A DNA stretch of 4,752 bases from a virus. Lineage: Duplodnaviria; Heunggongvirae; Uroviricota; Caudoviricetes. Below are positions 2,694-4,752 of the stretch, piece by piece. Below the pieces are notes generated by a model. It made no database searches. It saw only the letters and a program-made list of their open reading frames with translations, and had not been told where the DNA came from. The first letter of the stretch is position 1. The number at the start of each line of letters is the position of its first letter. The stretch is from the IMG/VR virus record IMGVR_UViG_2711768003_000013; one strand, 5' to 3'. Made by a program: the position numbers and the translations under genes.

Positions 2694-3380
2694 ATGACCC
2701 CAATAAACATATTTATGACAGTTGCTGATTTCAAACGGCCCAAATTGGAGCTCCCAAACGGGGCAAACAAACTACTACTGCACTCTTGCTGTGCTCCATG
2801 TTCCGGTGAGGTGATGGAGGCGCTTCAGGCCTCGGGAATCGACTACACCATCTTTTTCTACAACCCGAACATTCATCCTCAGAAAGAGTATTTAATTCGT
2901 AAGGATGAGAATATTCGCTTTGCTGAACAACACGGCGTGCCGTTTATTGATGCTGATTACGACACAGACAACTGGTTTGAACGAGCCAAAGGAATGGAAT
3001 GGGAGCCCGAACGAGGGATCCGTTGCACCATGTGTTTTGACATGCGTTTTGAGCGGACAGCGCTGTACGCCGCTGAAAATGGTTTCAGTGTGATCAGCAG
3101 TTCACTGGGCATTTCACGCTGGAAAAATATGCAGCAGGTTAACGACTGTGGGCGGCGAGCCGTCGCGCATTATCCGGGCATGGTGTACTGGGATTATAAC
3201 TGGCGCAAGCAGGGCGGCTCGTCCCGTATGATTGAAATCAGCAAGCGCGAAAAATTCTATCAGCAGGAATATTGTGGCTGTGTGTATTCTCTGCGCGATA
3301 CCAATCTACACCGCAAATCTCAGGGACGCCCTCTTATCAAAATTGGTCAACTCCACTACGGTAAAGAAGAGAAGGAGTGA
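2694..3380 (+). CDS. queH: QueH/DUF208-like protein (putative B12-independent epoxyqueuosine reductase homologue)
   Basis: 228-aa ORF with the motifs I associate with the QueH family: [11 protein letters not shown] near the N-terminus, C-x2-C (CTMCFD) mid-protein, and EYCGCVYS near the C-terminus. No good SD precedes either ATG 2694 or in-frame ATG 2715, so the start is uncertain. Confidence 0.7.
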
Positions 3381-3401
3381 TTTTATGGGGCACCTTTCTG
3401 A

Positions 3402-3431
3402 TTGATTTCATATTGGCGAGGTAAGTAGAAT
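3402..3431 (+). promoter_or_regulatory. Predicted sigma70 promoter of the hok mRNA (TTGATT, 18-nt spacer, TAGAAT)
   Basis: -35 TTGATT at 3402-3407 and -10 TAGAAT at 3426-3431; predicted start near 3438. This would give a leader of about 170 nt before the hok ATG, typical of hok family mRNAs. Confidence 0.4.
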
Positions 3432-3494
3432 GACTGCGGGTGCTTGAGGCTATCTGCTTCAGGCATGAACACCAAAAGGCAGATAGAGAAAAGC

Positions 3495-3559
3495 CCCAGT
3501 TAACATTACGCGTCCGGCAAGACGCTTAACATTAATCTGAGGCCAATTTCATGCTTTGC
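3495..3559 (-). ncRNA. Candidate sok-like antisense RNA (about 60-65 nt) complementary to the mok-like translation initiation region
   Basis: Predicted from the minus-strand promoter. The transcript would contain a composite hairpin (GUUAA-GCGUC-UUGCCG-GACGC-GUAAUG-UUAAC) followed by a U-rich stretch (GGGGCUUUUCUCU). Ends are approximate. Confidence 0.3.
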
Positions 3560-3763
3560 ACATGTAGGTTAGCCTCTTACATGCCGAAAGGCAAGGAGAA
3601 GCAGGCTATGAAGCAGCAAAAGGCGATGTTAATCGCCCTGATCGTCATCTGTTTAACCGTCATAGTGACGGCACTGGTAACGAGGAAAGACCTCTGTGAG
3701 GTACGAATCCGAACCGGCCAGACGGAGGTCGCTGTCTTCGTAGACTACGAATCCAGGAAGTAA
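3551..3763 (+). CDS. mok-like upstream reading frame (in-frame N-terminal extension of hok, 70 codons)
   Basis: ATG at 3551 with GAGG at 3538-3541 (9-nt spacing). The other two frames were checked and contain no ORF overlapping hok, so the only upstream ORF is this in-frame one. Its role as the translational coupler is inferred from the hok/sok paradigm. Confidence 0.35.
   Translation: MLCTCRLASYMPKGKEKQAMKQQKAMLIALIVICLTVIVTALVTRKDLCEVRIRTGQTEVAVFVDYESRK
3566..3594 (-). promoter_or_regulatory. Predicted promoter of a sok-like antisense RNA (minus strand: TTGCCT, 17-nt spacer, TAACCT)
   Basis: On the reverse complement, -35 TTGCCT corresponds to + coordinates 3589-3594 and -10 TAACCT to 3566-3571. 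The predicted start near 3559 points leftwards across the mok-like ATG (3551) and its SD (3538-3541). Confidence 0.35.
3608..3763 (+). CDS. hok: Hok/Gef-family type I toxin (51 aa small membrane peptide), HokD-like
   Basis: Translation MKQQKAMLIALIVICLTVIVTALVTRKDLCEVRIRTGQTEVAVFVDYESRK. As I recall E. coli HokD/RelF, it matches until the last seven residues. AAGGAGA at 3594-3600 lies 7 nt before the ATG; stop TAA 3761-3763. Confidence 0.9.
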   Translation: MKQQKAMLIALIVICLTVIVTALVTRKDLCEVRIRTGQTEVAVFVDYESRK

Positions 3764-3771
3764 GAGTGACC

Positions 3772-3799
3772 GGGCGGGGAGCTGATCCCATCCCCGCCC
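3772..3799 (+). other. GC-rich hairpin immediately downstream of the hok stop (9-bp perfect stem GGGCGGGGA / TCCCCGCCC, 10-nt loop)
   Basis: 3772-3780 and 3791-3799 are exact reverse complements. No T tract follows, so this is probably a structural element of the hok mRNA 3' region rather than a terminator. Confidence 0.5.
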
Positions 3800-3840
3800 A
3801 CCTCTGATGTGTCAGGCATCCTCAACGCACCCGCACTTAA

Positions 3841-3883
3841 CCCGCCCATCGCTGTGATCTCTCAGCGTTTCGGCGGGTTTTTT
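3841..3883 (+). terminator. Rho-independent terminator of the hok transcript
   Basis: Nested stem CCCGCC(3841-3846) / GGCGGG(3872-3877) enclosing CGCTG(3850-3854) / CAGCG(3863-3867), followed by T6 at 3878-3883. Confidence 0.6.
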
Positions 3884-3903
3884 GTTGTTTATTTCCGGTG
3901 AAT

Positions 3904-3931
3904 TTGATTCGCGCACCTTCGCAGATAGAAT
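3904..3931 (+). promoter_or_regulatory. Predicted sigma70 promoter for the downstream 95-codon ORF and DUF1367 gene (TTGATT, 16-nt spacer, TAGAAT)
   Basis: -35 TTGATT at 3904-3909 and -10 TAGAAT at 3926-3931, the same hexamers as the predicted hok promoter. It lies just downstream of the hok terminator and about 80 nt upstream of the ATG at 4013. Confidence 0.3.
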
Positions 3932-4012: not shown

Positions 4013-4300
4013 ATGAAAATCGAAGAATTGCGTGAAATTTTTAGTGAAAATGGCCTCTATGCTGTGCGCGTTGAGAATGGAGCGATTGTCAGCCATTGCC
4101 GCATTAGATGTTTGCAATCTCAACAAAGGAAGAGCGGTGCTGTGTTATTTTATTTTTGTAATGGACTTCTGACGGACGGTTTTATTTTGCGTGAGGACGA
4201 ATTTGTCACATCATTACGGGTTTTGAAAGAGATTGGTTTTAAGGCTGGTTTTCTGCTTTTGCTGAAGAATAAACTCATCTACAATCTTGAGCAGGATTGA
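4013..4300 (+). CDS. Hypothetical small protein (95 aa), no family recognised; AT-rich accessory-type gene
   Basis: ATG at 4013 with GGAAGGA about 9 nt upstream; stop TGA 4298-4300. Visibly more AT-rich than neighbouring genes. The hydrophobic C-terminal stretch KAGFLLLLKNKLIY is noted. No motif that I can assign. Confidence 0.5.
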   Translation: MKIEELREIFSENGLYAVRVENGAIVSHCRIRCLQSQQRKSGAVLFYFCNGLLTDGFILREDEFVTSLRVLKEIGFKAGFLLLLKNKLIYNLEQD

Positions 4301-4338
4301 ACTCCTGCTGTGTAACACCGTGCCACCGGAGAAAGCCG

Positions 4339-4692
4339 ATGGCACATATACAACTGGTCAAACAAACCTCTTCCGGATTACTTCTCCCGGCGACGCCGGA
4401 GAGTTGCGATTTTCTGCATCAAATCAAAATAGGTGAGTGGATACACGCAGACTTTAAGCGTGTGTGTAACTACGCATTCCACAAGCGTTTTTTCAAACTC
4501 CTGCAACTGGGTTTCGATTACTGGACTCCGGTCGGTGGGGCGATCACGCCTCGCGAACGAAAACTGGTGTCCGGTTTCGTTGATTACCTGTGTGAATCAG
4601 TAGGCCGGGAACATACGCCAGCTCTGAGCGAAGCCGCAGAGCAATTGAGGTGTACTGGCAATAGCGGACACTACCATTTGTTCTTTTTTTAA
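4339..4692 (+). CDS. DUF1367 (YbcN-like) nin-region protein, possibly truncated at a T7 tract
   Basis: ATG at 4339 with GGAGA 8 nt upstream is preferred over the TTG at 4297 used by the ORF track. The N-terminus MAHIQLVKQTSSGLLLPATPE...FHKRFFKLLQLGFDYWTP matches my recollection of YbcN/DUF1367 proteins. The ORF stops at TAA 4690-4692 inside TTTTTTTAA, while the -1 frame is open from 4665 to the window end. Confidence 0.65.
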   Translation: MAHIQLVKQTSSGLLLPATPESCDFLHQIKIGEWIHADFKRVCNYAFHKRFFKLLQLGFDYWTPVGGAITPRERKLVSGFVDYLCESVGREHTPALSEAAEQLRCTGNSGHYHLFFF

Positions 4693-4752
4693 GCAGCCAT
4701 CTGATGATATTTTTCCCTGAAGGCTGCCGGGGAGATATTCCCCAGACGAGAG

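Follow-up and report, generated by a model that had tools for sequence, protein, structure and literature searches.

The stretch of DNA analysed here, referred to as the window, spans 4,752 nucleotides of a Caudoviricetes record (IMG/VR IMGVR_UViG_2711768003_000013), and its positions 3402–3886 hold a complete hok/mok/sok type I toxin-antitoxin locus, confirmed by the evidence set out below, within a fragment of a lambdoid prophage. The toxin gene, hok, lies on the plus strand at 3608–3763 and encodes a peptide of 51 aa of the HokW/HokD type, which matches the Pfam HOK_GEF family (PF01848) with 81.1 bits against a cut-off of 22 and over the entire 42-position model. It is preceded by a Shine-Dalgarno sequence, AGGAG (3594–3598, plus strand), located 9 nt before the hok ATG and nearly invariant in an alignment (A1) of 33 homologous loci out of 47 related loci gathered. 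The gene is annotated as hokD in genomes with an identical sequence, and the exact protein is found, under the name HokD, on at least 1000 public contigs. An earlier, sequence-only reading of the locus had correctly read the C-terminus of the peptide as VDYESRK and had taken it to define a distinct variant, a claim that fails because HokW, the corresponding toxin of Stx phages, ends in VDYESEK, one residue away, and because the identical protein is so widespread in public contigs. The NCBIfam subfamily model for Hok family toxins (NF007279) scored the peptide at 55 bits, under its curated cut-off of 73; the trusted threshold of this model misses the HokC/D/W branch, and a cut-off set for a single model is no criterion that defines the hok family.

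Upstream of hok, and in frame with it, a second reading frame corresponding to mok extends over 70 codons from an ATG at 3551 to the hok stop codon (3551–3763, plus strand), as seen in the list of open reading frames. Its Shine-Dalgarno region (3539–3543, plus strand), read from the sequence and identical in the eight closest homologues, contains a GAGG (3540–3543) 7 nt upstream of the mok ATG. The upstream ATG with its own Shine-Dalgarno sequence had been recognized in the sequence-only reading, and so had the lack of overlapping frames: no further open reading frame on the plus strand overlaps hok. Neither mok nor hok contains frameshifts or stops. The frame corresponds to the mokW annotated in phage 933W, where mokW and hokW likewise share a stop codon, and an ATG is present at the aligned mok position in 29 of the 33 homologues, most of which read into hok either in frame or with a one-base shift. 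An in-frame mok at −57 is found in most members of the hokC/hokD/hokW clade, and in five homologues a 1-nt insertion places it at −58, out of frame. It is the translation of mok that matters, and not the Mok product, according to a published view (PMC9841398) with which the frame-shifted mok of these five homologues is in agreement.

Transcription of the mok and hok frames can be assigned to a promoter at 3402–3431 (plus strand), with a TTGATT −35 hexamer (3402–3407), an 18-nt spacer and a TAGAAT −10 hexamer (3426–3431). This promoter had been proposed from the sequence alone and was also called by a promoter scan, which returned two sites in the region, shuffled sequences giving an expectation of 0.5. 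Homologous loci of Escherichia, Kluyvera, Photorhabdus, Erwinia, Pantoea and Citrobacter present a −10-like hexamer 6 nt before a conserved GGG, and this fixed distance between the hexamer and the GGG that opens the tac element places the predicted transcription start at G3438. The Rfam sok model (RF01794) begins at the same position. A search with Rfam covariance models, suggested earlier as a check on the locus, yielded a full-length match to this family (model positions 1–157 of 157) at 3438–3613 on the plus strand, scoring 117 bits (gathering score, 59; E = 4e-27), and this is the sole Rfam match in the window. Since the model comprises 157 positions and matches the sense strand, it describes the leader of the hok mRNA and not the short antisense RNA, and its use as a guide to the orientation of Sok was hence rejected. 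The same model also matches the 933W and hokC loci and those of Photorhabdus and Erwinia.

The predicted mRNA begins with a tac (translational activator) element, GGGUGCUUGAGG (3438–3449, plus strand), named after the model developed for plasmid R1 (PMC9841398), which can pair with the fbi element, with the ucb box or with a nearby segment at 3457–3466. The fbi (fold-back inhibition) element, CCUCAACGCACCC, is located near the 3′ end of the transcript (3820–3832, plus strand), and its assignment draws on the MFE fold, on covariation and on duplex energy. The MFE fold of 3436–3886 has an energy of −195.4 kcal/mol (z = −9.1), with none of 100 shuffled sequences being as stable, and pairs 3436–3449 with 3820–3834, leaving C3826 bulged. 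The duplex between tac and the 3′UTR (−21.1 kcal/mol) is the best site for tac in the whole window, and its stability is equalled by only 2 of 2000 dinucleotide shuffles of the 3′UTR. The six G-C/C-G pairs at the core of the tac/fbi helix form in 30–32 of the 33 homologues, and the U3441–A3829 pair (alignment columns 53/469) shows compensatory change across six or more genera, being U-A in 21 homologues, C-G in nine, U-G in three and unpaired in none. The outer pairs at 3436–3437 are unpaired in 18–19 of the 33 homologues and fall upstream of the predicted start at G3438, and the conserved helix is therefore one of 12 pairs plus the bulged C3826. The long-range complementarity reported in the sequence-only reading is thus real, present in the MFE fold and covarying, and it is its length of 14 bp that requires correction.

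Covariation extends well beyond this helix. When the MFE structure is imposed on the 33 homologues, 81% of the alignment cells are paired, against about 41% with slid partners; 51 pairs have changed on both sides, and none of 500 shuffles reaches the observed covariation score. In the full-length MFE fold, a 3′UTR segment (3807–3819, plus strand) adjacent to fbi pairs with the mok start region (3551–3563). This helix displays double changes in eight of its 12 aligned pairs, with just 61–65% of cells paired. Its identification as the ucb/dcb pairing was considered and rejected because, following the published scheme (PMC9841398), ucb corresponds to the anti-Shine-Dalgarno box at 3491–3497 and dcb to the box at 3572–3576.

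The leader carries the elements required for alternative conformations of the mRNA. The ucb box, AAGCCCC (3491–3497, plus strand), can pair with the mok Shine-Dalgarno region in the full-length fold or with tac in the open fold, and the dcb box, GCCUC (3572–3576, plus strand), pairs with the mok Shine-Dalgarno region in the open, processed form according to the Rfam consensus structure, so that the mok Shine-Dalgarno region alternates between ucb and dcb. The closed form is seen in the full-length MFE fold, where GAGGC (3539–3543) pairs with GCCCC (3493–3497), and the open form emerges when the Rfam consensus is mapped onto the window, with 3438–3445 paired to 3491–3497 and 3539–3543 to 3572–3576. 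The tac/ucb pairs form in 31–32 of the 33 homologues and the mok Shine-Dalgarno/dcb pairs in 30–32, the alternative pairings of the open and closed forms are formed in 29–32 of them, and the open structure as a whole has 71% of its cells paired, against about 40% with slid partners. The pairs between tac and ucb and between the Shine-Dalgarno region and dcb are nearly invariant and hence leave little covariation signal; the open form is accordingly supported by conservation and by the Rfam model, and not by covariation. The tac/ucb open form was also sought in MFE folds of 3′-truncated RNAs, which gave a local hairpin of the metastable type instead: upon in silico removal of fbi, tac moves to pair locally, 3440–3449 with 3457–3466. 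The segment at 3457–3466 (plus strand) is hence the probable counterpart, judging by these truncated RNAs, of the tac partner in the metastable structure of nascent transcripts. In plasmid R1, tac pairs just downstream in a metastable hairpin of the nascent transcript, the closed full-length mRNA has tac paired with fbi and the mok Shine-Dalgarno sequence sequestered by ucb, and the 3′-processed open mRNA has tac paired with ucb and the mok Shine-Dalgarno sequence with dcb; mutational support has been provided for this model of tac, fbi, ucb, dcb and metastable elements (PMC9841398).

On the minus strand, the window encodes a putative antisense RNA, Sok, some 71 nt long (3559 to 3489), which covers the mok start codon and its Shine-Dalgarno sequence, and to which the sokW annotation of 933W maps (3559–3489). 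Its predicted fold (−30.2 kcal/mol, z = −4.9) comprises a 9-nt single-stranded 5′ tail, a long hairpin and a final CUUUU. The corresponding promoter, read from the sequence at 3566–3594 (minus strand), consists of a TTGCCT −35 hexamer (3594–3589), a 17-nt spacer and a TAACCT −10 hexamer (3571–3566), with a start at about 3559. A consensus promoter scan of the region did not call this promoter, since its −10 hexamer matches the consensus at only three of six positions, and what justifies keeping the assignment is not the strength of the consensus match but the identity with the sokW promoter: 34 of 35 positions match 933W across 3560–3594, both hexamers being identical, and mutations around the −10 of sokW abolish antitoxin activity in Sp5 (PMC8621323). 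The sequence-only reading had thus located the minus-strand promoter and its antisense product over the mok Shine-Dalgarno sequence and ATG correctly, and had underestimated the length of the RNA at about 60 nt.

The Sok and SokW sequences are identical in their last 54 nt and differ by six substitutions in the first 17, a stretch that is also the spacer between the mok Shine-Dalgarno sequence and AUG plus mok codons 2–3. Across seven close relatives, only 6–12 of the 16 positions of 3544–3559 are identical to the window, with the flanking elements almost always identical, making this the only strongly variable part of the leader among closely related copies. Three loci within a single Shigella flexneri genome have differing versions of the stretch.

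Downstream of the shared stop codon, a GC-rich stem-loop (3772–3799, plus strand) taken from the MFE fold would form the protective 3′ terminus of the mRNA after processing, a role that derives from mutagenesis of R1 (PMC9841398); in the homologues its helix core is 98.6% paired. The locus closes with an intrinsic terminator (3839–3885, plus strand) composed of an 8-bp outer stem, an inner 5-bp hairpin and a UUUUUU run, the hairpin at 3839–3879 together with its U-run having a folding energy of −22.8 kcal/mol (z = −5.9). Both the GC hairpin and the terminator, the latter placed at 3841–3883, had been noticed from the sequence, and the conservation of the former and the stable fold of the latter bear this out. 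A simple terminator scan found nothing at 3841–3883, a limitation of the scan that apparently arises because the stem is interrupted by the inner hairpin. This inner hairpin is formed by a 23-nt insertion in the terminator loop, seen in alignment A1 relative to other Escherichia and Shigella loci, and the terminator with the insertion is matched exactly in only two E. coli records. The break in similarity at about 3845 with most E. coli records was considered as a recombination boundary and rejected, given that it is explained by the 23-nt insertion, after which the next 19 nt are identical to a homologous locus (L011); it is only against 933W that homology truly ends after fbi. Neither the terminator nor the variable tail stretch of this copy removes any known element. 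It could be speculated that 3544–3559 acts as a diversified ‘address’ preventing cross-neutralization of co-resident hok/sok copies or, separately, that the terminator insertion retunes the timing of 3′ processing, but we deem these suggestions unlikely.

The region at 3380–3900 is 100% identical to chromosomes labelled as E. coli FDAARGOS_943 and FDAARGOS_944, and the same region shows 99.6% identity to one Shigella flexneri chromosome and to a further chromosome; these 99.6–100% identical copies in four other genomes all keep the same intact arrangement. In FDAARGOS_943, the gene annotated as hokD lies directly downstream of queH in a Rac/Qin-like lambdoid prophage, and the record has no mok, Sok or RNA feature annotated at the locus. 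This prophage is riddled with IS600, IS1 and IS2 elements, its integrase, RecE and terminase are disrupted, the terminase gene by an IS2 that splits it, and a head morphogenesis gene contains an internal stop. The window itself is bounded by IS600 termini (1–105 and 4646–4752), and the heavy decay of the prophage through insertion sequences means that the module could be under weakened selection.

In its overall design, the locus can be read through a model like that of R1. The constitutive promoter at 3402–3431 would give rise to a transcript of about 447 nt that begins at 3438 and ends around 3885, and whose 5′ tac would be kept in a local hairpin during synthesis. In the finished mRNA, tac would pair with fbi (3820–3832) and the mok start region with 3807–3819, and ucb would sequester the mok Shine-Dalgarno sequence, rendering the mRNA stable, untranslatable and inaccessible to Sok. 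Slow trimming of the 3′ end up to the GC hairpin at 3772–3799 would then take off fbi, allowing tac to pair with ucb and the mok Shine-Dalgarno sequence with dcb, and thereby enabling mok translation and the coupled translation of hok. The open mRNA would also expose the target of the unstable 71-nt Sok RNA, transcribed on the minus strand from 3559 to 3489, whose 5′ tail would bind the mok initiation region and form a duplex to be degraded by RNase III. Upon loss of Sok, the 51-aa Hok peptide would be expected to enter the inner membrane and kill or lyse the cell. The sequence elements, the predicted folds and the covariation of the helices are observations on this copy. Its close homology to characterized systems suggests, in turn, that both RNAs are probably transcribed, that the mRNA is processed at its 3′ end, and that toxicity and antitoxin action are likely retained.

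A different role for the module has to be weighed, in which its function would not be post-segregational stabilization. Sok would instead be lost at prophage induction, with Hok aiding lysis and phage release, or the module might alternatively serve in abortive-infection defence. The behaviour of Sp5 provides a precedent for the former, as mitomycin C removes the sokW RNA, after which the appearance of HokW is RecA-dependent and precedes that of the endolysin, and phage release falls by half when the locus is deleted (Takada et al., 2021; PMC8621323). The locus in the window also sits at a comparable position in the early region of a lambdoid prophage. However, the genome that carries the identical copy has the split terminase, the internal stop in the head morphogenesis gene and the disrupted integrase region, which make productive induction unlikely, and a role in assisting lysis would hence be left without a beneficiary. 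We thus regard such a role as tentative and somewhat unlikely for this copy.

The same signs of decay could point to a silent relic, that is, to a locus that is intact in sequence and physiologically inactive in a decaying prophage, neither killing nor stabilizing. Silence of this kind has been reported in E. coli K-12 for several of the hok loci on the chromosome. The insertions of IS600, IS1 and IS2 and the disrupted integrase, RecE and terminase around the identical copy, together with the IS600 sequence on both sides of the window, would all be in line with this view, and such decay is common in the family: the hokD leader has been lost in K-12, and homology is lost at the 5′ end in two of the related loci (L007 and L036) and at the 3′ end in two others (L016 and L041). 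Against it, every regulatory element is present here, with tac, ucb, the mok Shine-Dalgarno sequence, the sok promoter hexamers, the hok Shine-Dalgarno sequence and fbi all identical to their counterparts in the functional hokW-sokW system, the mok and hok frames are uninterrupted, and the near-identical copies in the four other genomes are equally intact. An inactive relic appears, on balance, quite improbable. Lastly, the notion that the 5′/3′ complementarity and the hairpins are accidents around a small hydrophobic open reading frame has a negligible probability and was rejected, for even though short GC-rich complementarities can arise at random, as the 2 in 2000 shuffled 3′UTRs matching the stability of the tac duplex illustrate, chance would have to account for the Rfam E-value of 4e-27, the fold z-score of −9.1, the compensatory changes in tac/fbi and many other helices, and the same architecture aligned in more than 30 loci of several genera.

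The reading of the locus as an intact hok/mok/sok module of the hokW-sokW prophage lineage, lying between queH and genes of the nin region in a lambdoid prophage fragment, is hence the best explanation of these data, with a probability of about 0.9. The proposal of a complete hok/sok-type locus with fold-back elements, first made from the sequence, is upheld by the Rfam model, by Pfam HOK_GEF, by covariation in 33 homologues and by 91% DNA identity to hokW-sokW. Loci of this kind are already known, the sequence itself is catalogued, and both mechanism and family are textbook material. The significance of the finding goes little beyond annotation, in that the ‘hokD’ of RefSeq in Shigella-like genomes is a complete module of the hokW-sokW type, with mok, Sok and fold-back elements. 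Intact prophage copies of hok/sok may contribute to the chromosomal retention of prophage segments undergoing decay, or may have an influence on lysis.

Among known systems, the one that lends its name to the gene in RefSeq is a poor comparator. The hokD (relF) gene of the K-12 Qin prophage, located 71 nt downstream of relE, encodes a toxin that is 90% identical to the Hok of the window (compared through the K-12-type copy L008) and ends in TAYEPEE, where the latter ends in VDYESRK. In that copy, similarity to the window reaches no further than about 14 nt upstream of the hok ATG and RF01794 yields no match, so that tac, ucb, sok and mok are missing, and it is this loss of the whole regulatory leader that makes K-12 HokD unsuitable for comparison. 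The Escherichia chromosomal hokC (gef)/mokC/sokC locus belongs to the same clade and is closer in organization, with about 75% DNA identity to the window, the same tac sequence, an in-frame mok of 69 codons and an Rfam sok match of 118 bits. It differs in toxin residues and in a shorter Sok terminator hairpin, due to an 18-nt deletion relative to the window, and its K-12-type representative loses homology past the GC hairpin, implying that fbi is absent there.

The hok/sok (parB) system of plasmid R1 is carried by a plasmid, whereas the locus of the window resides in a prophage; its mok is out of frame with hok, unlike the in-frame mok seen here, and its full-length mRNA measures about 398 nt, against about 447 nt for the transcript predicted in the window. 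Its toxin is also distant, with an identity of about 44% that was given for HokW and R1 Hok (PMC8621323). As the reference system, R1 nevertheless defines tac/fbi, ucb, dcb, the metastable hairpin, mok coupling, the Sok target and 3′ processing (PMC9841398), all of which have counterparts in the window.

The closest characterized relative is the hokW-mokW-sokW locus of the Stx phages 933W and Sp5 (VT2-Sakai), which shares 91% DNA identity with the window over 3415–3842, the same order of elements, an in-frame mok and each of the identical regulatory elements enumerated above. HokW and the Hok of the window are identical at 50 of 51 residues, with E50 in HokW and R50 here, and the mokW product differs from the predicted Mok at two residues. 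The two loci diverge in the 3′ GC hairpin, whose loop is longer in the window, in the terminator, as similarity with 933W stops right after fbi, and in their neighbours, with queH lying upstream in the window. In this system, HokW has been shown to be toxic and is located in the inner membrane, both RNAs have been detected, and the sokW RNA, with 71 nt complementary to the leader, neutralizes the toxin when expressed from its own promoter, with partial contributions from RNase III and Hfq (PMC8621323).

When close relatives are compared, the only strongly variable part of the regulatory leader is window 3544-3559, a stretch that comprises the 5' tail of the predicted Sok RNA (3559-3489, minus strand), the spacer between the mok Shine-Dalgarno sequence and its AUG, and mok codons 2-3. 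Seven close relatives match the window at 6 to 12 of these 16 nt, with the elements on either side nearly always identical. Furthermore, a single Shigella flexneri genome harbors three of the collected loci (L004, L009, and L011), and their versions of 3544-3559 differ. This stretch may act as a specificity determinant against cross-talk.

Several of the homologous loci in A1, an alignment of 33 related loci, appear to be decayed. In L007 and L036 homology is lost at the 5' end, and these loci therefore lack both tac, the 5' end of the hok mRNA (3438-3449 in the window), and the leader. In L016, a K-12-type hokC, and L041, homology stops directly after the GC hairpin that follows the hok stop codon (3772-3799), implying the absence of fbi, the pairing partner of tac in the 3' untranslated region (3820-3832).

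Directly upstream of hok/sok lies a prophage-borne queH gene encoding an epoxyqueuosine reductase (2694-3380; Pfam PF02677, 220 bits), and the queH-hokD pair is seen repeatedly among those E. coli chromosomes that match best. The window's two ends (1-105 and 4646-4752) are 100% identical, and in the same orientation, to the IS600 termini found at the related locus L001, indicating a prophage fragment with queH and hok/sok that is flanked by IS600; alternatively, the window could be a draft contig broken within IS copies. An ORF at 4297-4692, assigned to the DUF1367 family in L001, is apparently truncated by the right-hand IS600 copy. Within the replication-gene region, a masked run of 472 consecutive N (1222-1693) creates an artificial 447-aa ORF (789-2132).

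Just past the hok terminator (3839-3885) and upstream of a 95-aa ORF (4013-4300) for which a Pfam search returned no match, there is a second promoter-like site (TTGATT-16-TAGAAT, 3904-3931), whose hexamers are identical to those of the hok promoter (TTGATT-18-TAGAAT, 3402-3431). The terminator itself carries, in the loop of its hairpin (3839-3879), an extra 23 nt (3847-3869, approximately CCATCGCTGTGATCTCTCAGCGT) that form a separate 5-bp hairpin. The exact insertion is common to only two E. coli records, and a form about 80% similar occurs in four. Other Escherichia and Shigella loci, in contrast, present a CCCGC-TTCG-GCGGG arrangement at the position where the window bears this insertion.
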